From a virus (Duplodnaviria > Caudoviricetes), in the IMG/VR virus record IMGVR_UViG_3300003319_000115, positions 1-53,730 of that record: DNA of 53,730 nt. One strand, written 5' to 3'. Under the pieces are notes generated by a model that was not told the DNA's origin, ran no database searches, and saw only the letters and a program-made list of their open reading frames with translations. The position numbers were made by a program, and so were the translations under genes. This document shows, piece by piece, positions 1 through 53,730 of this stretch; position 1 is the first letter of the stretch; each line of letters opens with the position of its first letter.

Positions 1-24
1 CAAGCTTCCTGTCCAAAAGCTACG
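1..24. repeat. 24-bp terminal direct repeat (copy at 53707-53730); assembly overlap indicating a circular or circularly permuted complete genome
   Basis: caagcttcctgtccaaaagctacg at both ends; the PolA frame (..GKFKLPVQKLR|DGKVTT..) continues across the junction. Confidence 0.95.
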
Positions 25-436
25 CGATGGAAAGGTCACTACGAACGAGGACGCAATCGTATATCTCATTGGCTACGCAAAAGGAAAAGCCGAAAGCTAT
101 AAAACTATACAATATAAAAACCAATGGCTTCTTATCGAAGCTATTCTTCGCGGTATCTTGGAAATTAGAGGCATTCGTCAGTTGTTGTCGAATTATATTC
201 TCGCCCGCATTTCCGCAGACAACAGAATTCGTTCTACTTATAAAGTCGCCGGGCCGGAAACAGGTCGTTGGGCCGCTGAACATTTTGTTGATGGATCAGG
301 AAACAACGCTCAGACATTCCCTAGAGGTCACGTCGAATTAACAGAAGGAGAAATGGCGGATGTTGAGAAGTTACTTAAAGAGCTTGAGAGTGAGGTTGAA
401 GAGGATCAAGAAGAACTTGAAGAAGAATATGCATAA
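2..436 (+). CDS. polA: 3' part of the DNA polymerase A N-terminal subunit (thumb/palm start), continuing the ORF from 52427; ends in an acidic tail
   Basis: Open frame from base 2; ETGRWAA and GNNAQTFPR match PolA TGRLSS and NLQNIP; stop after ELESEVEEDQEELEEEYA. Confidence 0.88.
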   Translation, partial: KLPVQKLRDGKVTTNEDAIVYLIGYAKGKAESYKTIQYKNQWLLIEAILRGILEIRGIRQLLSNYILARISADNRIRSTYKVAGPETGRWAAEHFVDGSGNNAQTFPRGHVELTEGEMADVEKLLKELESEVEEDQEELEEEYA

Positions 437-560
437 ACATGCTGGTTATGTGGTTACTTGGTATGCAATGGGAAGGTTAAGAGTCGGGCTTAAGTGTAGT
501 GAGTGTGGAGCTATAGTCGGACAAGATTGGGTACCTGAACATATTTTCGATGAAAATTAA
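429..560 (+). CDS. 43-aa putative Zn-ribbon protein between the two PolA halves
   Basis: MHKHAGY...KCSECG...; HxH plus CxxC; overlaps the upstream stop and the downstream start. Confidence 0.6.
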   Translation: MHKHAGYVVTWYAMGRLRVGLKCSECGAIVGQDWVPEHIFDEN

Positions 561-1395
561 AATCCGCTCCATGATAGTCGCACCTCCTGGTAAAGTTCTA
601 CTAATGTGTGACTTATCTCAAGCTGAATCGTGGGTAGTAGCATACTTAGCTAACGAACCACGGATGAAACATGCTTTGCAATACGGAGATATTCATACGG
701 AGACAGCGGGTAGTGCAATATTCTTTCCATACGGATGTAGTCATAATTGGGATAAAGATTTACGAACGTGTAGTGTTTGCGGTAATGTTGTTACAACTGA
801 GATGCGGTACATCGGAAAGAGATGGAATCATGCTTCTGCATACCGTATGAAACCTGCGCGGGCTGCACAAGTAGTAAATAAGGACAGCGACCAGCCCCCT
901 TATGTAACTATCACCGTTGCACAATCAACCGAATACAGTAAGGCTTGGCATTCCTACTATAACCTCAAACCGTGGTGGGGTGAAATTGAGTACCAACTTG
1001 GAGTTAACCGCACTATGGTTACTCCTTATGGTCGTAAGAGGACTTTCTTTGGTGGATGGGGAGATGAGTTATTCAAAGAAGCAACCGCGTTTGTACCACA
1101 ATCAACGGTTGCGGATCATTTTAATGGTGCTGTGCAACCTGAACTTGGTATTAGTGGGGGTTTGCTTAGTATTTATACTAATATTGTTCTACCAAATCCA
1201 GAAATTAAACTAATCAACCAGAGTCACGATAGTTGTATGTTGGAAGTTCCACAGAGTAGTTACGTTGAAGTAGCCCAACAAATGAAGAGTTACTTATTCC
1301 GCCCGATTATCATTAACGGAGAAACTTGTTCCATTCCAGTTGATTGCGAGGTTGGTGAACGTTGGGGAGAACTAGAGAAACTAAAGGTGGCTTAA
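550..1395 (+). CDS. polA: DNA polymerase A catalytic C-terminal subunit (motifs A, B, C)
   Basis: IRSMIVAPPG, motif A DLSQAE, DIH, motif B RYIGKRWNHASAY, TPYGRKR, PQST, motif C HDS, C-terminal IPVDCEVGERWGEL. Confidence 0.93.
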   Translation: MKIKIRSMIVAPPGKVLLMCDLSQAESWVVAYLANEPRMKHALQYGDIHTETAGSAIFFPYGCSHNWDKDLRTCSVCGNVVTTEMRYIGKRWNHASAYRMKPARAAQVVNKDSDQPPYVTITVAQSTEYSKAWHSYYNLKPWWGEIEYQLGVNRTMVTPYGRKRTFFGGWGDELFKEATAFVPQSTVADHFNGAVQPELGISGGLLSIYTNIVLPNPEIKLINQSHDSCMLEVPQSSYVEVAQQMKSYLFRPIIINGETCSIPVDCEVGERWGELEKLKVA

Positions 1396-3051: not shown

Positions 3052-6000
3052 CTACTTCCTCTTAGGTGTGTTACCAGTCCATTGATCCACCACACTAGCT
3101 GGACCTCTCTCATAACCTAAACCTAATCCAATACCTGTATTAACTTCCTCAAGTTTTAACTTATAATACTCTCCACTATCATCAATGGTGGGAACGCTAA
3201 TCGTGTAGCCTTCGCGCACGATTTCGTCCCACCAATTTTTATTTTGTTCATCTACGCGCGCACCTAAAGCTTGGCCCGCTACTTGATATCCCAAGTAACC
3301 ATTTTGCCACATTTCAAAAGCCCGCCACCAACCACTAACTGCGGAGTAGCCGGGAACCATTAAGGTCGCGTTGCGTAACAAGTTCTTCCTACCTGCCGTA
3401 GCAATAAACTCATTATCGTTTGTTGCGTCTCTAGCATTCTGATATGCAGTTACGAGAGGACCACCACCAAACAAGAGTGAGTTTGGTGTAGTCATCCAAC
3501 CGGATAAGTTAAATCCAGTAACAGCGTCGGCAGCGCGTAGAGCGATTTGAACTTCTGAAAACCTACGCATTCTTCCTACACGTTCTCCTAAATCCCCCAA
3601 CGTTGCTAACTTTCCTACAAATCTACTTTGCCACGCTGTCCATTGACCAAACTGACCAAACACTTTACCAGCTAACTTATCCCAACCTAAGGGATGGTTC
3701 ATGGCCCCATACACAAATCCTGTTTGTGCCCCATTAACACGCGCTAAGAACTTAGCGGCGTCTTGATATTGTTGCTTAGTGATAAGCCGGTCGAACTCTA
3801 GTTGAACGGAAGGATCGAAGGCGCTTAGACCAATCTTTTTATACACTTGCGCTTTATTCTCACTCCCATTCACTAATCCCTTCAACGCTTCCGCCGTGTT
3901 CGTAAACGATTCTAGGAACGCCGCCGAATGAAAGTTGTCATAAGCAGTTTTCTGCATCGAACCCGTAAACATGACATTCATGTAACCTTCCATGAGGCCA
4001 CGCCCAAACTCACGAACAACTCCGGGTTGTTCACCGGGAACGGAGAATTCAATAGGACTGAATTCACCAAATTGACCGGATTTCTTAAAGGCTTCCCGGA
4101 GTTCCCTCATTTCTCCGGTAGGTGCTAGGTACTTCAACAACCTTCTCGTTCTCTCCAATCCATGTAATGCATAATAGTTACCAATCATTCCTACAAAGTC
4201 ACGCGCACCTGCAACTGGACGTAAACCCTGTGCAGAAGCTTCAGCAATACCAATGTAGCGATTGAAGGTTTTACTGAACAGTTCAGCAACGTCTTTGGGA
4301 CTACGCTGGATACCTAACGTTTTTAAGAACTCCGAAGTATGCTCTGCCGTAGCATCAGCAATACGCTTACTACGGCCCGCCATACCTTCTAAGTAATCTA
4401 CCATCCTTGTCTCGATCTGTTGTGCATTCTTAGGTGCAGTAAGAGCAATACGTTTTACTTCTGCACTTATAGCATTCTTAGCATTGTTCCATGCTTCATT
4501 AAAGCCAAGCTCCTTTTTAATCGCACCAGTAGCATAACGAACTAACAGAGACATTGGATCTCTGTCAAGCATGTCGTTATTTAGCTCACCAGTGCGTATG
4601 AGTTCGCTAACAAACTCGTCAGGGCGACGCGACTTTAAAATATCTTCCTCAATAATAGCATCAGGGAATTGTCTATAGTGAGGAATGTACACTCTGATAA
4701 TGCGATCTTCTGCAATACCAGTAAGTTTGCTCAAGTCTCTAAAGTGGTCATCAAGCATCCGTGCAGCAACAGTAAATCTACCTTTAAGGTGTTCGGGAAC
4801 ACGTTGCTTAAGAAACTCATCTCGCGTAAGCCCAAACTTAGGGTCAAGTGCTTGTGCATAACGAGTAATAGCTAATAGAGAACTAGTATTCATATTACTA
4901 GCTGTTACTCGTTGAAACATTTCAAATGCTTTCATATGTAAGTCGTCCATTTGCATTTGATCTTTATGGACAGACATTACAGCTTGGAAAGCTTCAGGTT
5001 CTAATCCACGCTTCTCAGCATTGATATAAGCACGACGATACTTGAATACTTTATCAAGATCCACCTTGTTATCATACAACCATTGACCATCAGTAACTTC
5101 CTGTTTGGTCATTGAGCGGTGGAGGAGAGACGAGCGAACCTCGTTAGCACTAAGGGTTTCGGTGTAATCAAGTAAAAGTGCCCGCTCAGCACTAGTCATT
5201 CCCTTTAATACGTTGTCTAAGGGAAGGAACTTAACTTTCAGAGGTGTTACCTTACTAACATATTGTCTATGCAATACTTGTAAGCTATCGAATACTCTTG
5301 CGTAAAGACTTGTACGATACGTGTTATCAATAGATTTAAAATAATCGCCTCTAGCTGTTAACCAGGGTAAGCGAATATTGAGATAGTCAGCAATACCACC
5401 CAAGAACTTACTACCATAATTCGCTTCAAAGGGTTGCTCATACGCTTTAGGATACCTAACAGGCATACTCGGAGGTAACACAACTCCATCAGGAACAGGA
5501 GAATCAACAAGATCAATATTCTTCTCTTGTCCTGATTTATTAACAAACGCTAATGCTTCTTCACCGTTGCTGAACTTTTCCAGTACCTTCCCATCTTGTA
5601 CTCTCCTTAATATCACACCCCCACCCGGAACCATGTCGAAGTACATATTGTTCGTAATGGTAGCTACACTAAGTCTAGACGCAACCTCAGTATTAGCATC
5701 AATGTGACGTTGACGCTCCTCTAAGAGTCGGTCTATAGTAGCTTTGAGAACTGCGTGTTCTTCGTCGGGCAGTAGCTTTTCGAGACGTTTATTAAATCTA
5801 CTAACAAACTCATTTCTTAACGCAGGTATATCAGCTTGTGTGAATCCCTTTTCCTGCACAAAGGACTCAAACAAGTTATTGAAATTTATGCTAGCTGAAC
5901 CCCTTAACTTATCATACGCTTCTGCTAGCTGAGAAATCGTATGATAGAACTCAGCAAAGTATTGATTCAAAACTCTATCATACTTATCTTGAAGCTTGTT

Positions 6001-8961
6001 CTTTAATGGTGTAATCTTCACACCATCCATTTCTTGCTTGAGAACAAGTAGGCGGGCTCTTGCTGCATCACTGCCGGGAGCGGGCGTTGGTGTTGCCTGC
6101 TTAACACTTTGTAGCTCTGATACATTCTTATTAACATCACCTTTACCTAACTCAAACTCCAAACGGTCAATATCATTAGTTGATGTACTCAAGCTTTTGA
6201 TCGTTCCTAGTACACCAAAATCCTGATTCTTTAACAAACTCGTGTCACCAATCAACTCGCTAACAGCACCAGCAACTTGCTTGAATCGCTTGTCGAAGAA
6301 TTCTGTTTCACCAATACGAGGACTTTCTCTATTTCTAATTGCGCCATAATCATCATACAGCTTGGCTAAAGCTTCATTCAAATCTTTGTACTTTGAAATA
6401 TAATAATTAGCAATATCACTCGGTGACCCTGTGTACCAAGTTCTAATTGCTTCACGGTCGAATGCGTCTTTTTCTTTGTAATTAAGCTTAAGGTCTTGAG
6501 TAATATTTCTAAGTAAATTATCACTATCTACAGAAGGATGTGATAATCCTTCCAACAGGGTATTAATATCAACTTTCGCCACTGTACCTCTAGCTAATAC
6601 ATATTCAACTACATCCCCACCTAAACCGATAATATAGTTTAGTTGGGGATTTTGCGTTTCTGCTGGTCCAACTTTCTTAGGTTCAGCTAAACCTAATGAT
6701 ACTAAAGCATCGTGTTTTCCTCTTTCAAAATTAGGATTCTTAGTACCATTTCCCTCTTTTAAATATCCAATCATCTCTGGTTGAACTTTCAAAGCACCAA
6801 CGTCAACTAGTTCTGTAACAATTCCACCAATATAAGTCATGTTCAACAACCGTAGTGCTTCTGTATCATTTGGCACTATCTTATTAAAATGATCGTACAA
6901 TGAATCTAATGCTTCATTAATGGATTTTCTAGAATTAAGATAATGTGTAACAATACGCACACCGTCACCAGTTAACCATACTTCTGTATCATCGTGGGTT
7001 AATGGTGTTGCAATCTTTTCTCCTTCGGTCTTGCTTATAATATGTGCAATAACAGTTTCTCTATCAAGCCCCATCTCAGGGTCATTAATTGCTTCATTTA
7101 AGATATCAAATGGAGCATAGTTAAGTAACATCCTTTGTTGTTGATTTTTATCTAAATTACCATAACGCAACATGAAATTTGTGTAACGCTTAGACCCCTT
7201 AAATTCTTTACCAACAACACTCCCCTTCGCCATCTTAGCCTTCAATGCTTCCAACTTCGCTTCAACAGTATTTGGAGAGCGAGGAATAATTGTAGCTTGT
7301 GCAGCATTGGGAACGTCGCGGATGTCGTTGTGCTTGACTGAAAGCTCATTACCCTCACTGTCCTTCAACTTAATAACGTCACCATCTTGACCCTGAACAA
7401 AATACGACTTCCCATTAACAGAAACTTCCTCTTGCGGAATAAAGCCCGTTCGTTGAAAGAACTCAATGTGCCCAGTTGGTGTATTCTTATCTGCAATCAA
7501 TACATCAAACGTACCATCAGCATTCTTTCTGCTGATTCCTTGGCGCACGTTCTTAACAACATCATCATCCTCTAGTTTGGGAGGATTATTTATCAACTCC
7601 TTTAATTCTGCTTCCTCTCTAATTAAATTACTTTCCAACCTTGCCCGATCAGCAGCAAATTCTACAGTACCAGCAGCTTTAATTGCTTTGATGTCAGCAA
7701 TAATACGTTCCTTAATGTCTATCTCATCTTCATATGCTTGATACTTAGCTGCCCCCTTTTCTGTGAACAATGTCTCTGCGTGAGCAAAACTAGAAGCAAT
7801 ATCAGCAGATTGCACACCACGAACGATCTGTGCTCCCGGTATGCGTAACTTACCAGTGATTACAGCTTGAGCTAGATTATCAGCTGTAGCTATCGCCTCT
7901 AACTTCGCTGTACCAGAATTGATACTATCATCAATGTAAAGCTTTAATTGACGCTCATAGAGTAAGTTACGAGCTACAGTCTGAATAAGCTCGGGAGCTT
8001 CTAGAACGTTCCTTCCTCTAACACCTTGAAAGAAATCCACCGCAAACCCTAGTGGAATTCCCATAATGGTATTAAAGACGATATTCTTAAATGCATCTTT
8101 ATTACCAGCTTCACCAACAATACCGCCCGCTAAACCACCCACTGCACCACCCACCGTATCACCGATTAGATCGCGAGCTAACTTACCTAAACGTGGACCA
8201 CGTGCAGCATTTAGTAAAGCTTCACGACCAACGGTTTGTGTTGTACCTTTTACTAAGTTCTCTGCAATTTCTTTTCCTGCTTTCCTAAACGCACTTCCAG
8301 CCAAAGCTTCCTTTGTCACCATAGAAGCTCCACCAGTAGCGAAAATCATGATACCGTCAGCAAGGGCGTCTCGCATCTTTTCAGCCCTTTCCTCGGGCTT
8401 TAAGGCCCTCAAATCCTCACCAAAGGCTGTGTTTGCGAGAGTTTCAATGGGTCGCCCAACCATCTCCAAAAGCCCCAAGCCTAACGCGGGAACCCCTTTG
8501 GCAATAGTTGATAACTTTTCATCGCTCTTAGCAAAAGAGCGAGCAGAGTTGACAAACTCTTGTGCTCCTTCCGCACCACCACTAAGAGCCTGTACTCTAG
8601 CTGGAGTAAGGTCTTGTACACCAGAAATAGTGTAATCACCAATAGCTAACAGCTTGTTATAAAGCGCTACTGTAAAATCACTATAATCAGTGTTTTGTAA
8701 GTTAGTTAAAATTTTGTATCTATCAGCCAAGGCTTGCTTATTAATCATGTAATAGCCCGGCGTAAAAGCTTGCATGGTACGGGCTAAACCTGAAATATAC
8801 GATGTAAACGTAGTACGAGGTATACTATCGTCAACTTCGTCTAAAACACTATAATCAATCTTAGTATCTACTGCTTTTCTAGTAGATGATTTTCCCGGCG
8901 CTGTTTGCTTAGGTTCTTCCTCCTCAAGAATGCTCCAATCAATAGGCTTGGGTCCAGTCAT
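3052..8961 (-). CDS. very large internal virion / DNA ejection protein (1969 aa)
   Basis: Last gene of a podovirus-like late operon; Gly/Ala-rich hydrophobic N-terminal segments and helical body; assigned by position. Confidence 0.6.
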   Translation of the reverse strand: MTGPKPIDWSILEEEEPKQTAPGKSSTRKAVDTKIDYSVLDEVDDSIPRTTFTSYISGLARTMQAFTPGYYMINKQALADRYKILTNLQNTDYSDFTVALYNKLLAIGDYTISGVQDLTPARVQALSGGAEGAQEFVNSARSFAKSDEKLSTIAKGVPALGLGLLEMVGRPIETLANTAFGEDLRALKPEERAEKMRDALADGIMIFATGGASMVTKEALAGSAFRKAGKEIAENLVKGTTQTVGREALLNAARGPRLGKLARDLIGDTVGGAVGGLAGGIVGEAGNKDAFKNIVFNTIMGIPLGFAVDFFQGVRGRNVLEAPELIQTVARNLLYERQLKLYIDDSINSGTAKLEAIATADNLAQAVITGKLRIPGAQIVRGVQSADIASSFAHAETLFTEKGAAKYQAYEDEIDIKERIIADIKAIKAAGTVEFAADRARLESNLIREEAELKELINNPPKLEDDDVVKNVRQGISRKNADGTFDVLIADKNTPTGHIEFFQRTGFIPQEEVSVNGKSYFVQGQDGDVIKLKDSEGNELSVKHNDIRDVPNAAQATIIPRSPNTVEAKLEALKAKMAKGSVVGKEFKGSKRYTNFMLRYGNLDKNQQQRMLLNYAPFDILNEAINDPEMGLDRETVIAHIISKTEGEKIATPLTHDDTEVWLTGDGVRIVTHYLNSRKSINEALDSLYDHFNKIVPNDTEALRLLNMTYIGGIVTELVDVGALKVQPEMIGYLKEGNGTKNPNFERGKHDALVSLGLAEPKKVGPAETQNPQLNYIIGLGGDVVEYVLARGTVAKVDINTLLEGLSHPSVDSDNLLRNITQDLKLNYKEKDAFDREAIRTWYTGSPSDIANYYISKYKDLNEALAKLYDDYGAIRNRESPRIGETEFFDKRFKQVAGAVSELIGDTSLLKNQDFGVLGTIKSLSTSTNDIDRLEFELGKGDVNKNVSELQSVKQATPTPAPGSDAARARLLVLKQEMDGVKITPLKNKLQDKYDRVLNQYFAEFYHTISQLAEAYDKLRGSASINFNNLFESFVQEKGFTQADIPALRNEFVSRFNKRLEKLLPDEEHAVLKATIDRLLEERQRHIDANTEVASRLSVATITNNMYFDMVPGGGVILRRVQDGKVLEKFSNGEEALAFVNKSGQEKNIDLVDSPVPDGVVLPPSMPVRYPKAYEQPFEANYGSKFLGGIADYLNIRLPWLTARGDYFKSIDNTYRTSLYARVFDSLQVLHRQYVSKVTPLKVKFLPLDNVLKGMTSAERALLLDYTETLSANEVRSSLLHRSMTKQEVTDGQWLYDNKVDLDKVFKYRRAYINAEKRGLEPEAFQAVMSVHKDQMQMDDLHMKAFEMFQRVTASNMNTSSLLAITRYAQALDPKFGLTRDEFLKQRVPEHLKGRFTVAARMLDDHFRDLSKLTGIAEDRIIRVYIPHYRQFPDAIIEEDILKSRRPDEFVSELIRTGELNNDMLDRDPMSLLVRYATGAIKKELGFNEAWNNAKNAISAEVKRIALTAPKNAQQIETRMVDYLEGMAGRSKRIADATAEHTSEFLKTLGIQRSPKDVAELFSKTFNRYIGIAEASAQGLRPVAGARDFVGMIGNYYALHGLERTRRLLKYLAPTGEMRELREAFKKSGQFGEFSPIEFSVPGEQPGVVREFGRGLMEGYMNVMFTGSMQKTAYDNFHSAAFLESFTNTAEALKGLVNGSENKAQVYKKIGLSAFDPSVQLEFDRLITKQQYQDAAKFLARVNGAQTGFVYGAMNHPLGWDKLAGKVFGQFGQWTAWQSRFVGKLATLGDLGERVGRMRRFSEVQIALRAADAVTGFNLSGWMTTPNSLLFGGGPLVTAYQNARDATNDNEFIATAGRKNLLRNATLMVPGYSAVSGWWRAFEMWQNGYLGYQVAGQALGARVDEQNKNWWDEIVREGYTISVPTIDDSGEYYKLKLEEVNTGIGLGLGYERGPASVVDQWTGNTPKRK

Positions 8962-19966: not shown

Positions 19967-21713
19967 TGCCAGTCACCGCTTGAATTAGTTCACGCAATAT
20001 GATACGATCAACATTTCTAACATCAAAGGTTTCGAGAATTTGAACCATAATCTCTGTTGCACCAGACATACCCTTTTGTGCAATAAGTGCTGCTAACTGT
20101 GCATTACCAGTCAGTTGAGCTAATGACAACATTCCTGTAAGATACTGTTGGAATACAGGAGCAATTTGCAACCAGTTCTGACGGTCAAGGAGTTTGTTTT
20201 GTTGTTGTCCAGTAGTTTTAAGTTCTAACAGTAATCCATTACTAACCAACCTCTCAGGCATATTAAACAACTTTGCAACTTGACCCTCAACATCAACATA
20301 TTCAAAATATTCTACTGTACGCGGACCGAATATATGAATGTTGACTGCTGTCTTTTTAATGGAACGATCTAAGAAATCTTTGAAGTTTCCGTAGTGATAA
20401 TCAGATTTCTTCTGTCCTTCTTGAATACGAGATAAGTCGCTAGTTGCTGTACCGGGAGTACCAACTTGTGGCATCCCAAGCATTACTTCATTAACACCAG
20501 TTCGTTGTTGTAAGTAGATCAACGAACCTTGTTCGTCAGCAAAACTAGAAGGATAGATTTCTGCTAATTGGAAAGAATCAATGTGATCCATGTTATCAAC
20601 GAACCACATCTTTCCAGGCCAAATTGGTTCGTTAGGACCATACTTGCTTAAGGATGATACTTTAATCATCCTCATGTTTGCTAGTGTAGCATTATCCAAT
20701 CTTTGTCTGTGTTGAGTTGTAATCTCTCTTTGAAAATGTTCTGACTGCTTACAAACACCCATGCCCGTCCAACGATGTTCAACTGGAAAGTAGATTCCAA
20801 TCTCGTAAGGACGAGACAAATCTGCATACCAATTATAACGCACACTCATTAATGTGCGCGATTCTTTATGATAATGTACTACGATTTCTTCATCTCTACC
20901 ATCACCATCAACGTCGAATGCTAACCAGATTTCTTTCCACTGAATAGTCTTAGGCCAAACTGGCTTGATATTATCTAAGTCTTGTTGTTGCTGTTTAAAT
21001 TTATCAGGATTCTGTTGAGAATCGGCGATCCATTTTTCTAGGTTATCTCTTGTTCCTTCCTTGAAAAGTCCACCATATTCTAAGTTAATAACATCGTAAG
21101 CGGTCTTTTCGTGTTCCTCGCCAACCCACGGCGAATTCTCAGGATCACGAGCATAAAAAGGCATCAAGAAGCGTGAAATGGGTACTGCATCCATACACGC
21201 ACCTTGCTTAGTCACTACGTCAAATGTCGTTTCTTCACCATTAGGTAATGTGATAACAGCTTTCTTCACCAGCCTTTCATAACCCATTTTTCCAACACAA
21301 GTACCATACTTTACTCTCTCTAAATCTGTATCAACAACGTATTGTCTAAAGTTAATACCATACTTCAACTCATGATCGAAGAAGCGCTCAAACGGTCTAG
21401 CACTATCACTCCAATCAGGAGCTTTAGCTTGAGCAGAAACTAACTCTTTAACAGCAAATACTGTTGTAATATTACGTGCATGAACAGTCTCGACAGCAAT
21501 AGCACTTAACGGAATTTCAATTGTAGCTGCACCTTTAAATGGAAACTCAGCTAGCTCAGTAGAAGGCTGAGCCCAATAAATCTGTTGCCAACGGTTTAGG
21601 TCATCAATAAACCTGCCCCGTTCAGCATAGAAATTTTCCAATTCTGTATTGAGGTAACTGATTAATCTTTCCTCAGTATCCTCATCTAACACTAACTGTC
21701 TAGGATAAGGCAT
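19824..21713 (-). CDS. portal protein
   Basis: 629 aa; PFKGAA, KYGTCVGK, D.DGDG.DEE, WTGMGV, R.DNA.LAN, RTGV....G...GTAT. Confidence 0.9.
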   Translation of the reverse strand: MPYPRQLVLDEDTEERLISYLNTELENFYAERGRFIDDLNRWQQIYWAQPSTELAEFPFKGAATIEIPLSAIAVETVHARNITTVFAVKELVSAQAKAPDWSDSARPFERFFDHELKYGINFRQYVVDTDLERVKYGTCVGKMGYERLVKKAVITLPNGEETTFDVVTKQGACMDAVPISRFLMPFYARDPENSPWVGEEHEKTAYDVINLEYGGLFKEGTRDNLEKWIADSQQNPDKFKQQQQDLDNIKPVWPKTIQWKEIWLAFDVDGDGRDEEIVVHYHKESRTLMSVRYNWYADLSRPYEIGIYFPVEHRWTGMGVCKQSEHFQREITTQHRQRLDNATLANMRMIKVSSLSKYGPNEPIWPGKMWFVDNMDHIDSFQLAEIYPSSFADEQGSLIYLQQRTGVNEVMLGMPQVGTPGTATSDLSRIQEGQKKSDYHYGNFKDFLDRSIKKTAVNIHIFGPRTVEYFEYVDVEGQVAKLFNMPERLVSNGLLLELKTTGQQQNKLLDRQNWLQIAPVFQQYLTGMLSLAQLTGNAQLAALIAQKGMSGATEIMVQILETFDVRNVDRIILRELIQAVTGNGNGLNQISQSGGSQGLILPGQNGGMGAINQAIPTFASPSYAGNGRV

Positions 21714-22122
21714 GTTCCTTCTTATGACAAGATTGACAAAGGAACTCTAAGTTGTTTAAATCAAGAGCGCGCAAAGGGTGAGTGTAAATACGAAGCTTAT
21801 GATGAGCGTGGTGACCCACACAGCCACAACGATTACAGAGTCCAACATAACGCTCACGGCAACTCTGCCTAAGTATTTTCCAGGCTTCGCTCTGATAGAA
21901 TTTAGTACGTAACTTAAGATAGACATACTTTAGTTTCTTCTCGGATATACGACCTTTCCTATACAGTTCTTTATGTAACTCGATTTCTTCTAAGATTCTA
22001 AATGCTACGTCAAGAGGACCACGATAAGTTATACCACCCTTAACGGAAGCCTTCTTAGCACTAGAATCTAGTTTCTTTCTGTAAGCTGATATGTACTCTG
22101 AGTAACTCGCCATTCTAGCCAC
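21700..22122 (-). CDS. HNH endonuclease (terminase-associated type)
   Basis: FYQSEAW..LR, CNRCG...HAHH...NLEFLCQSCHKKEH. Confidence 0.9.
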   Translation of the reverse strand: MARMASYSEYISAYRKKLDSSAKKASVKGGITYRGPLDVAFRILEEIELHKELYRKGRISEKKLKYVYLKLRTKFYQSEAWKILRQSCRERYVGLCNRCGCVGHHAHHKLRIYTHPLRALDLNNLEFLCQSCHKKEHALS

Positions 22123-40253: not shown

Positions 40254-40949
40254 ATGCAATTCTATATCGGCTTACATGTTCCGGGCCATTGTTCACAGTT
40301 CTCTCACTCAATGGTAAGCGTCAACAGACTTCGTTACCTCGTTAAACACTTTACCCCAAACAAGTGGATTCTCGATAGTGGGGCATTTACAGAAATCAGC
40401 AAGTATGGAGAATACCGGCACAGCGTTGCCACTTACGCTAAAACCATAGAGAAGTGGAGAAGGAGCGGAACTCTACATGCCGTTGTGTCACAAGACTATA
40501 TGTGTGAACCCTTCATATTGAAGCGTTGGGGAACTACAGTTAGGGAGCATCAAGTTAAAACAGTATTACGTTACCTTGAATTACAATCACTCACCACCGT
40601 TTACATAATGCCCGTCCTACAAGGTTATACTACTTATGAATACCTTGAACACATCGAAATGTATATTGATTATATCTCACCTTCCCAGTGGATCGGAGTA
40701 GGTTCTGTGTGTAAGCGCAATACGAGTGACCCACAAGAAGTGTATAGGATACTTAGTGCTATTAAGAATCGCTTACCCGATATTAAACTCCATGGCTTTG
40801 GCTTGAAAGCTAATACTCTCAAAGACCCTAACATTTACTCACTTCTCCACTCCGCCGACTCAATGGCTTGGTCATTAAACGCAAAGCTTCAAGGCCGTGA
40901 CCCCAATGATATTAATGAAGCACTTAGATTCTGGCGCGAACTCAGTTAG
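40254..40949 (+). CDS. TGT-like (queuine tRNA-ribosyltransferase fold) protein, DpdA/DUF7221-like putative DNA base-exchange enzyme
   Basis: WILDSGAF, QDYMCEP, MPVLQG, IGVGSVC.R, LHGFG.K, SADSMAWS. Confidence 0.8.
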   Translation: MQFYIGLHVPGHCSQFSHSMVSVNRLRYLVKHFTPNKWILDSGAFTEISKYGEYRHSVATYAKTIEKWRRSGTLHAVVSQDYMCEPFILKRWGTTVREHQVKTVLRYLELQSLTTVYIMPVLQGYTTYEYLEHIEMYIDYISPSQWIGVGSVCKRNTSDPQEVYRILSAIKNRLPDIKLHGFGLKANTLKDPNIYSLLHSADSMAWSLNAKLQGRDPNDINEALRFWRELS

Positions 40950-52215: not shown

Positions 52216-52446
52216 ATGGCAACAATAGTAAAGCTAATTAATGGTCCGTTTCACAGCCAAGTAAGGCACGTTGAATCATGGGAAGATACAATTAAAATAG
52301 AATATGTAAGTATGCAAGATTTACATGATAGTATGTTTAAACAACAGACACCGCCAACCTATGTTGGTTGGTATGTAAGAAAGCGTAATAGTCAAACTAA
52401 TGAAATAGCTTTTTTTTGGGAACAAAATGACCCTAATAGGAAATAA
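52216..52446 (+). CDS. hypothetical protein
   Basis: L.NGP..Q pattern; first ORF after the promoter. Confidence 0.6.
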   Translation: MATIVKLINGPFHSQVRHVESWEDTIKIEYVSMQDLHDSMFKQQTPPTYVGWYVRKRNSQTNEIAFFWEQNDPNRK

Positions 52447-53730
52447 ACCAGTTCCCGGCACCGGCCCCACTAACTCCAACATTCTCCTAGTTGGTGAAGC
52501 TCCGGGCGCTGATGAGGAACGTTTAGGAGAACCATTTGTTGGTTATTCGGGCGAGTTGTTGATGAACGTATTGGGACGCAACGGTATATCCCGCAACGAA
52601 GTCCGTCTCGATAACCTTTGTCACTACCGCCCGTCATCAAATAAGTTTCAGAACCTTGTAGGTTCCAAGGAACTTGTTCAAGGAATCCTCTCCCTTCATG
52701 ATTACCTCTCCAATCACAGACCCAACATTATCATTGCGTTGGGGAGCCAGCCACTTAAATACCTCACTGGAAAGGTTGGTATTGACAGATACCGTGGTTC
52801 TTTCCTCACTACCAACTTTAAAGACATACCGCCTATTAAGGTATTACCCACATATCATCCCGCTGCCGTATTGCGTGATCGGAAGCTCTACCCGATCTTC
52901 GACTTCGACATACGTCGTGGAATTTCTGATTCGAGTTTTCCCGATTTGCGGCTACCAGAGTACAATTTTGTACTTAATCCACAAGGTCTTGAAAGAGAGG
53001 AATGGACTGAGAAGTTATGCAACGCTAGAAAGCTGGCCGTTGACATCGAGGCTGTTAAAGATTCAACTCAAATCATCTGTGTGGGATTTGCCCTGGATGA
53101 AAAAACAGCAGTAGTTTTTCCGTACGATCATAATAATTACGAGAACATTGATCGAGTTTTACGTAGTGCTGCCACTAAAGTGTTTCACTTTGGCACTTAC
53201 GATAGCATCATGTTGGAGTTAAATGGACATGAAATTAAAAATTACAGCAGAGATACGCTCGTCGGACTTCACACTATCAATCCAGAACTTCCAAAATCTC
53301 TCGCCTTTGCAACTTCTATCTACACAAGACAACCTTATTACAAAGACGATGGACGAGGTTCACTCCCTAGCGATGCGAAAGCTTGGGGCAAGAAAAGAGA
53401 CAGAAACGATGTCTATGAATATAACGCTAAAGATTGTTGCGTCACCTGGTTGATTGATGAGAGGGAGCAGGAATATATTAGTGCTGATCCTCACTTTAAA
53501 GCGACATATGAACTAGAAATAAACTTAATTCCCGTAGCCCGCAAAATGAGTAAAACGGGAATGTTAGTGGACATGAAGCGTAGAGAGATGCTAAGAGTAG
53601 CCCTCCTCAATAAGTGGGCCAAAAAGCAATTTGCCTTAGATAAGCTCGTTGGTGAATCTGTAAATGTACGCTCACCGAAACTAAAAGATATTCTCTATGG
53701 AAAGTTCAAGCTTCCTGTCCAAAAGCTACG
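52427..53730 (+). CDS. polA: DNA polymerase A N-terminal subunit: family-4-like uracil-DNA glycosylase + 3'-5' exonuclease + thumb (continues at base 25, ends 436)
   Basis: Translated by hand (absent from the ORF track): LVGEAPGADE..GEPFVG.SG, PTYHPAAVLR; ExoI AVDIE, ExoII HFGTYD, ExoIII YEYNAKD; GMLVD. Confidence 0.92.
   Translation, partial: MTLIGNKPVPGTGPTNSNILLVGEAPGADEERLGEPFVGYSGELLMNVLGRNGISRNEVRLDNLCHYRPSSNKFQNLVGSKELVQGILSLHDYLSNHRPNIIIALGSQPLKYLTGKVGIDRYRGSFLTTNFKDIPPIKVLPTYHPAAVLRDRKLYPIFDFDIRRGISDSSFPDLRLPEYNFVLNPQGLEREEWTEKLCNARKLAVDIEAVKDSTQIICVGFALDEKTAVVFPYDHNNYENIDRVLRSAATKVFHFGTYDSIMLELNGHEIKNYSRDTLVGLHTINPELPKSLAFATSIYTRQPYYKDDGRGSLPSDAKAWGKKRDRNDVYEYNAKDCCVTWLIDEREQEYISADPHFKATYELEINLIPVARKMSKTGMLVDMKRREMLRVALLNKWAKKQFALDKLVGESVNVRSPKLKDILYGKFKLPVQKL

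Follow-up and report, generated by a model that had tools for sequence, protein, structure and literature searches.

Family A DNA polymerases (PolA) divided between two genes have been described in several groups of phages. Gene fission between the exonuclease and polymerase parts is known from S-SBP1-like T7-like cyanophages (Czernecki et al. 2023, PMC10201439), and LUZ24-like genomes carry a 'DNA polymerase part I' and 'part II' of 171 aa and 546 aa, with about ten small open reading frames (ORFs) between them (PMC3890496). In MEP401/MEP402-type phages of OM43 (Zobellviridae-related), PolA is made up of ORF13 and ORF15 with the small unknown ORF14 in between; the same report finds the split common to most related metagenomic genomes of MEP401, and its authors suggested an intron (PMC10580990). 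Single-chain phage polymerases that join uracil-DNA glycosylase (UDG) to PolA are on record for the N4-like cluster 17, the SPO1/SP-10 type and SP15-like phages (passages of PMC10201439 and PMC13697223), and outside family A the split family B DNA polymerase of PhiKZ, DNAP-N/DNAP-C, is reported to form a stable 1:1 complex (PMC13648687). In the window, by which we mean the whole 53,730-nucleotide stretch that was analysed (IMG/VR virus record IMGVR_UViG_3300003319_000115, positions 1 to 53,730; Caudoviricetes), the sole family A DNA polymerase is fissioned between the NAQTxPR motif and the strand leading into motif A, and two proteins are encoded.

Our explanation as a whole, which we hold to be very likely, is a fission of the PolA gene inside the polymerase domain, with two chains that reassemble, coupled translation of the two genes, a tolerated slot in the gap between them and a dispensable tail on the first chain. 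The N-subunit (571 aa) comprises a UDG-like domain, the 3′-5′ exonuclease, the thumb, the first palm strands and the acidic tail, and the C-subunit (281 aa) comprises the second hairpin strand, motif A, the fingers with motif B, and motif C. Reassembled into an ordinary PolA fold, the chains would pair their hairpin strands across the interface and build the active site from both.

The genome of this uncultured soil phage is complete, as the first 24 of its 53,730 bp are repeated at 53707-53730 (a terminal repeat), and the joint of the record ends is spanned by one Logan contig of run X1. Because of this 24-bp repeat, the N-subunit gene begins at 52427 and crosses the record ends: read through the joint and continuing at window position 25, it runs from ATG 52427 to TAA 434-436 and encodes 571 aa. 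Its first part (52427..53730, plus strand) holds the UDG-like domain, the 3′-5′ exonuclease and the start of the polymerase domain; in a Pfam search with the first 434 residues, residues 10-152 matched the UDG superfamily PF03167 (E 1.8e-24), and the 3′-5′ exonuclease family PF01612 was found at E 6.8e-5. Its last part (1..436, plus strand, frame 2) holds thumb helices, ETGRW, NAQTFPR and the acidic tail. The last 144 residues, coded by 2-433, run to ...ETGRWAAEHFVDGSGNNAQTFPR, including GNNAQTFPR (299..325, plus strand), the equivalent of PNLQNIPVR and the final conserved polymerase motif of this chain, and then to the tail GHVELTEGEMADVEKLLKELESEVEEDQEELEEEYA (326..433, plus strand), which consists of GHVEL and an acidic stretch of about 30 residues ending in EEEYA. 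Across 14 N-subunit ends, E86, R89, N102, Q104, T105, P107 and R108 are invariant, and ETGR and NAQTxPR are invariant or nearly so. The N fragment alone stays under the Pfam PF00476 cut-off (E 0.11, profile positions 73-123).

The C-subunit gene (550..1395, plus strand; 281 aa) starts at ATG 550 (MKIKIRSMIVAPPGKVLLMCDLSQAESW), in the third frame relative to the N gene and to a 43-aa ORF that lies between the two, and its product comprises the second hairpin strand KIKIRS, motif A, the fingers with motif B, and motif C. It matches Pfam DNA_pol_A with 57.4 bits (cut-off 34.3) over profile positions 139-381 of 381, and a search of the genome gives the same match. Motif A, DLSQAE (610..627, plus strand), contains the catalytic aspartate D21, and motif C is the His-Asp pair at 1225..1230 (plus strand). 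In an alignment of 36 C-subunits (A1), the invariant residues are D21, Q24 and E26 of motif A, R86, K90 and Y98 of motif B, and H226 and D227 of motif C; we take the motif names A (Dx2QxE), B (Rx3Kx7Y) and C (HD), and the Klenow equivalents of residues, to be those in common use. Genome-wide there was 1 PF00476 match and there were 0 PF00136 matches, and a comparison of 76 ORFs with PHROGs returned no other polymerase. These results bear out the sequence-only reading of the locus, namely PolA in two genes, three ORFs at these positions with overlaps of 8 nt and 11 nt, and an acidic tail of roughly 35 residues after GNNAQTFPR, which counts 36 residues with 16 D/E and 2 K/R.

For locating the cut, profiles were aligned with known polymerases. 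The N-end profile aligned with residues 302-348 of the Klenow chain (profile positions 43-85) and the C profile with residues 365-418 (C-subunit positions 4-56); a single-sequence search of the PDB with the C-subunit gave no match, while the profile searches did. The cut falls at about position 124-138 of the 381 in the PF00476 profile, past the thumb and the NAQTxPR motif, and if the motif A aspartate is D705, as we presume, it corresponds to roughly residues 683-687 of Pol I, a short loop that follows the arginine of PVR. A fused relative, P0121 (829 aa), covers the whole polymerase: its residues 3-432 are 53% identical to the first 434 residues of the N-subunit, residues 427-543 align without gaps to N-end residues 1-117 at 55% identity, and residues 549-826 are 63% identical to the C-subunit. 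The AlphaFold2 (AF2) model of P0121 has a mean pLDDT of 92.8 and a pTM of 0.91, and Foldseek matched it to Klenow and Bst large fragments at E ~1e-28 with a target-normalised TM of 0.74-0.82. In this model, strands 536-540 and 546-550 are separated by a five-residue turn and followed by the motif A strand at 561-568; GHVEL of the N chain aligns with strand 536-540, and KIKIRS of the C chain is the second hairpin strand. Since these hairpin strands flank the cut, the model places it inside the palm, in the turn of a confident beta-hairpin a few residues past the arginine of NAQTFPR. The cut had been assigned to the thumb/palm junction, which is close by, but the predicted site lies within the palm and not at a domain border. 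On this model, the palm sheet bearing motif A is divided between both chains, and GHVEL and KIKIRS would pair with each other from chain to chain. A complex prediction for the N fragment (144 aa, alignment A2) and the C-subunit (A1), run without controls, scored 0.01 and 0.05 where the mark is 0.32; it counts as evidence neither way.

Relatives were surveyed with tblastn in loci drawn from the window, IMG/VR, JGI metagenomes and GTDB contigs, first via the C-subunit and then via the 36-sequence alignment A1. The 106 loci, window included, comprised 47 distinct split loci, 5 distinct fused loci and 17 duplicates, together with 24 in which the upstream part was not visible and 13 in which the start of the C half had no match. 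Every distinct locus with both halves visible and a C-half start at least 51% identical to the window's had the same cut site (47/47). Over the first 60 residues of the C half, identity to the window was at least 51% in all 47 split loci and at most 46% in all 5 fused loci, which have a short junction such as NLQTIPLKMRVMF. Without exception, the N chains of split loci end in N[AS]QTxPR plus a tail and the C chains begin just ahead of [I/V]R[S/A][M/F]; L059 looks aberrant owing to a local duplication in its contig, and in the twins of that contig, L060 and L061, the cut is normal. The search for the same split in related phages, which had been proposed as a check, thus came out in favour of it, single-ORF (fused) forms being rare and more distant.

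The protein databases gave a similar picture. C-subunit matches at E <= 1e-3 amounted to 647 protein clusters of 154-492 aa, the best 120 of which are 256-298 aa long and 56-100% identical with at least 95% query coverage. Among 45 representatives at E <= 1e-30, 32 measure 255-294 aa and align from within their own first 25 residues; the other 13 are 2 full-length proteins, 1 with an insert, 2 extended at the N terminus (P0228 and P0230) and otherwise fragments. The extended pair, P0228 (470 aa) and P0230 (443 aa), are longer by about 190 residues at the N terminus and may reflect either a differently sited cut or truncated calls. In distant GenBank phage relatives, at ~22-28% identity, the polymerase is annotated as a single gene; gene length was checked for Desulfofustis phage LS06-2018-MD01 and for Polaromonas phage Tiera.

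The gap of the window contains the 43-aa ORF (MHKH...CSEC...; 429..560, plus strand), which looks like cargo specific to this lineage and probably serves as a translational relay. At its start, the ATG shares 8 nt with the end of the N gene (ATGCATAA); at its end, the TAA falls 8 nt beyond the C-subunit ATG, giving an overlap of 11 nt (ATGAAAATTAA). It had been called a Zn-ribbon mini-gene. A zinc ribbon has two metal-binding knuckles (CxxC or CxxH pairs) on a three-stranded sheet, and this ORF has one CxxC (C24, C27) and one HxH (H3, H5); the label stays unproven, with Pfam zinc-finger matches all below threshold at E 0.13-0.23 (zf-tcix at E 0.13). An AF2 prediction from the single sequence folded into three strands and a helix with a pLDDT of 82.9, 4/5 models reaching at least 74.9. 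A structure search with the model returned nothing at E <= 0.001, only weak rows at E 0.6-1.3 that include some small zinc-binding modules and were not counted, and language-model features placed the ORF nearest to small viral zinc-finger-like clusters (0.90-0.92), which we treat as leads only. It is probably a real small protein, perhaps metal-binding, yet unnecessary for the polymerase.

The leading alternative makes the 43-aa protein, the acidic tail or both obligatory assembly factors, up to a three-chain complex with a small zinc-binding subunit; we consider it unlikely. In its favour, the ORF overlaps both subunit genes tidily, has a confident alignment-free fold and zinc-finger-like feature neighbours (again leads only), and unrelated small CxxC ORFs occur in the gap of five other loci (L013, L045, L053, L073 and L100). 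Against it, no relative was found among 5.8 billion protein clusters and no match in PHROGs, 0/46 other split loci carry it, 9/47 leave no room for a gap gene at all, and the evidence for metal binding stops at a single CxxC, sub-threshold Pfam matches and a structure search without a match at E <= 0.001. Since it lacks relatives anywhere searched, the 43-aa ORF is not a general assembly factor, and it appears from these comparisons to be a passenger of this lineage; the proposal that it mediates assembly is not supported.

What occupies the gap in other genomes fits a passenger. From the N stop to the C start, the distance ranges from -20 to 2972 nt over the 47 loci and is at most 3 nt in nine of them, the window having 113 nt. 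In the 38 loci with a gap of at least 90 nt, 84 same-strand gap ORFs of at least 30 codons fell into 78 clusters (the window's 43-aa ORF lay outside the filter for this clustering), and gap genes were shared only between near-identical phages. Between L060 and L061, C half and N tail agree and the stretch separating the subunit genes does not, so turnover in the slot is fast. Gap products that could be identified are a DHH phosphoesterase, a protein with DUF4031, an epimerase of nucleotide sugars and a CxxC protein resembling DnaJ, among others; no homing endonuclease was found among 16 gap ORFs compared with Pfam or 17 compared with PHROGs, the other gap ORFs having been clustered only. Judged by gene content, the space between the subunit genes appears to be a tolerated insertion slot that may be empty, hold one small orphan gene or hold several kb of unrelated genes.

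The acidic tail is more widespread. Tails of at least 20 residues after PR occur in 38/47 split loci (median 36), and pooled over the 47 tails, D+E make up 37% and K+R 5%, with an acidic run and then a terminal Ala in 15/47. The tail sequences do not align and are acidic nonetheless, so composition is conserved and not sequence. The share of long acidic tails, and the recurrent Ala after the acidic run, are what the assembly-factor alternative can cite for a tail mediator; nine lineages have tails of only 0-18 residues (for example PRGEI, PREKV and PRESIEYETSDS, each followed directly by the stop), and the three closest fused relatives examined have non-acidic linkers of 10-17 residues at the junction (P0121 GGVSVIQADNTIQT; P0124 KKIEVEGQKY; P0213 similar). 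In view of these short tails and linkers, the tail accompanies the split state but is dispensable, and the idea that it mediates assembly is supported only in part. We read it as a common, apparently selected accessory of the split state, with a C-subunit clasp, a docking peptide for another replication protein and a DNA mimic as candidate roles.

A bolder version, to which we give little credence, would see the split as functional design and not as a scar that is put up with: the tail, often ending ...EE[V/I/Y]A(A), would behave as the acidic C-terminal tails of SSB or the T7 helicase do, and would dock the downstream primase-helicase or the C-subunit or else mask the DNA cleft until assembly, and small proteins from the coupled slot, such as the possibly metal-binding one of 43 aa, would form a third subunit. 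If this were true, lineage-specific small proteins would be produced together with the polymerase and would join or tune it.

Setting the assembly-factor and design proposals aside and returning to fission with a tolerated slot, we asked how the two subunits might be expressed. The three ORFs stand head-to-tail with overlapping stop and start codons. No terminator-like site was found on the plus strand in 1-2000, and promoter-like sites were at chance level (6 found, 4.8 expected). None of GGAG, GAGG and AGGA occurs at -18 to -4 before the 43-aa ORF or the C start, and 25/78 genes genome-wide have one of them. In 38/47 loci the candidate C start lies at most 20 nt from the stop of an upstream open frame (at least 30 codons, any content), and two further loci have same-frame neighbours; 19 of these close C starts are 4-nt overlaps of the ATGA/GTGA type. 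Most likely, ribosomes would move from the N gene to the 43-aa ORF and on to the C gene by termination-reinitiation, which would keep the subunits in step.

A quick maximum-likelihood search over 61 C regions, in which SH-aLRT was the only support measure, gave an ingroup of 52 rows, with support of 97, that comprised the 47 split and the 5 fused forms. P0121 is sister to the split L009 (SH-aLRT 97) and P0124 to P0209 plus L017/L018 (100), and well-supported branches force at least 4 changes between the split and fused states. L017/L018 (positions 4495-4520), and also L076/L077, show a minimal split, in which the two genes share 20 nt in frames offset by one and the tail has 10 residues; as L017/L018 stand next to the fused P0124, one indel could interconvert the two states, making the overlap a possible one-indel switch or frameshift site. 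The most parsimonious history would be a single fission followed by a few re-fusions, the alternative being repeated fission at a permissive hairpin; the fused relatives are known as proteins.

Several points weigh against our explanation. With the fused P0121 and P0124 nested in the split clade, the split must be either reversible or of multiple origin. In L010 and L031 the halves share one frame, 3 and 0 nt apart, and these loci, like L017/L018, might make some full-length product by read-through or frameshifting. That the chains bind each other is what we infer from the conservation of both halves and the modelled fold of the fused relative, and the translational relay is suggested by the geometry of the genes; as a clear Shine-Dalgarno-like motif is present in only 25 of the 78 genes, its absence at the two internal starts is weak evidence for a relay.

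A self-splicing intron, as in SPO1 and some T7-like polymerase genes, or an intein, could restore one continuous polymerase. Phage PolA introns are well known, as the accessible text of PMC10580990 notes with citations, and the MEP401 authors guessed at an intron for their own split; P0122 and P0123, which have an insert with intein-like boundaries in motif B, show that mobile insertions do visit the PolA gene. Nevertheless, Rfam found no intron family at E <= 10 in 1-2000, only unrelated families at E 3.1 and 6.9, and the RNA of 320-570 folds less stably than its shuffles (z = +1.22; 180/200 shuffles at least as stable), so that nothing suggests the splicing out of 330-550 that had been proposed for checking. 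In 9/47 loci the interval of -20 to 3 nt leaves no room for an intron while the cut is unchanged, and the composition of the tail is protein-like (acidic) across lineages. As for an intein, Pfam at E <= 1 found a Hint or intein domain in neither half, only DNA_pol_A, and in the model of P0121 the junction is a simple hairpin, two-stranded and about 15 residues long. Inteins are bounded by Cys/Ser at one end and Asn-Cys/Ser/Thr at the other, unlike the residues that flank the cut, which are Gly/Asp/Glu where the N part ends and Met-Lys where the C part begins. Taken with the conserved cut, this makes an intron or intein very improbable.

Programmed recoding, by stop read-through, frameshift or ribosomal bypass, would yield a full-length single chain, and the same-frame halves of L010 and L031 (3 and 0 nt apart) and the one-frame, 20-nt overlap of L017/L018 are what could be offered for it. 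In the window, by contrast, N and C are in different frames, with C 113 nt downstream; the N gene closes with the sense codons GAA GAA TAT GCA, and no GCA, TAT or GAA occurs in the C frame over 517-549, so a hop in the style of gene 60 has no landing site. Gaps of 113-2972 nt filled with other genes in 38/47 loci, and the fact that every C-subunit has its own start codon right before the conserved [I/V]R[S/A] strand, tell against recoding, and we rate it as scarcely probable. A decaying pseudogene or an assembly artefact, which could point to the sub-threshold N fragment (E 0.11), is the least credible of all given identical contigs from four runs, the same cut in 47 distinct loci, invariant catalytic residues and the absence of any other polymerase from a complete genome.

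The contigs in question were assembled independently in four runs of a single root-metagenome study, possibly including the source sample, and match the window at 100% wherever they cover 1-1500, two of them covering all of it; contigs over 300-600, the interval that the sequence-only reading wished to see mapped, are accordingly identical in all runs that reach it. Its central proposal, a two-subunit polymerase and not a frameshift error, stands on the same cut in 47/47 loci, on catalytic and DNA-contact motifs kept by both halves, and on the lack of a second polymerase.

The C-subunit has further features of its own. A Cys-His-Cys-Cys insert in the fingers (736..780, plus strand; C63, H65, W67, C74, C77), of the form Cys-x-His...Cys-x-x-Cys, is a putative metal site: its columns are each at least 90% conserved in the 36 C-subunits, it is absent from L003/L010, and the corresponding region reaches a pLDDT of only 65-73 in the model of the fused relative. 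A relationship between this insert and the 43-aa ORF was considered and treated as chance, as they share only CS.CG..V at E 0.069. H94 (829-831, plus strand) forms the pattern Rx3Kx3Hx3Y, and this His is invariant in the clade (A1) and in 52 fused relatives (alignment A3); its position presumably corresponds to Klenow F762, the sugar-discrimination site. The related C-subunits P0122 and P0123 carry an insert of about 300 aa inside motif B; its first residue is Cys, its last is Asn, and Ser comes next, boundaries that resemble those of an intein, and a Pfam Hint or endonuclease domain was not found in it at E <= 0.01.

Elsewhere in the genome, a DpdA homologue is encoded at 40254-40946 (plus strand; PF23859 at E 7.4e-37, and the PHROG 'queuine tRNA-ribosyltransferase'), which, on our understanding of DpdA systems, suggests phage DNA with a 7-deazaguanine modification. 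A 1969-aa ORF at 3052-8961 (minus strand), without a PHROG match at E <= 1e-5, adjoins structural genes, the replication genes being on the opposite strand; the Desulfofustis phage record is alike in having the polymerase, a primase and then a large reverse-strand ORF. An HNH endonuclease gene at 21700-22122 (minus strand) lies directly downstream of the portal gene, within the packaging block. Matches in genome collections fell on contigs from metagenome bins whose labels disagree (Blastocatellia, Nitrososphaerales, Saccharibacteria); we take these to be binned phage contigs, and no host is called from them.

If the reading of a fissioned PolA is right, the catalytic palm of a family A polymerase is apparently built from two chains across a phage clade, with 47 or more distinct loci and protein clusters in the hundreds, and the clade seemingly can pass from split to fused and back. 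The hairpin that precedes motif A would then be a natural, evolution-tested break point, useful for the engineering of split polymerases and for questions of subunit cohesion, and a cargo slot hosted by an essential gene bears on how phage genomes gain genes. C-halves are annotated as whole 'DNA polymerase I-like' or hypothetical proteins, and with such misnaming and with N-halves below the Pfam polymerase threshold, polymerase surveys and completeness checks can be misled.

Among the known systems, the S-SBP1-like and LUZ24-like phages resemble the window in making one PolA from two genes, the products of which are presumed to reassemble, and the LUZ24-like gap is again a cargo slot. They differ in the position of the cut, which in both lies at the border of the 3′-5′ exonuclease and the polymerase and leaves a whole domain to each chain, whereas the cut in the window lies within the catalytic domain and the palm is shared. 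The UDG-PolA phages have the family-4-type UDG, the 3′-5′ exonuclease and PolA in the same order, which is also the Pfam order of our fused relatives. Their polymerase is one polypeptide, whereas in the window phage the N gene closes at 434-436 and the C gene opens at 550 in a different frame, and the polymerase is likewise in two chains in 47 of 47 close loci; the passages on UDG-PolA that were searched make no mention of a split at this site, and the word 'split' is absent from the accessible text of PMC13697223. The UDG-like domain of the window phage (52427-52900, plus strand) retains the GEAPG and HPAAVLR motifs, and with both motifs kept it may be an active glycosylase, unlike that of the N4-like group as characterised in the accessible part of PMC10201439. 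PhiKZ provides a two-chain phage replicative polymerase and a working precedent for a split catalytic core, as far as the accessible passage shows; that polymerase is of family B and experimentally proven, whereas the family A split of the window phage is known from sequence.

The closest parallel is MEP401, for which we compared sequence OP830906. As in the window, the polymerase domain itself is cut a short distance ahead of motif A, and there is a small orphan ORF in the gap. The N part of MEP401 ends in ...NLQNFDGEIKTLFLSRYGE and the C part starts with MILNADAKALEW, directly on motif A, so that its N part keeps the strand that opens the C-subunit in the window phage. The UDG domain and the acidic tail of the window phage are both missing from MEP401. 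A tblastn search with the window C-subunit did not find it at E <= 1e-5, so its fission is an independent one at a neighbouring site, and the accessible text of the MEP401 report contains no structural or comparative analysis of the cut. Within the full-text literature searched (subscription journals and supplements being outside its scope), the cut seen here is not described and MEP401 is the only PolA split inside a domain. PolA splits as such are therefore already published, both at the exonuclease/polymerase border and, in MEP401, at a nearby site, and by sequence comparison the cut site of the window phage differs from both.

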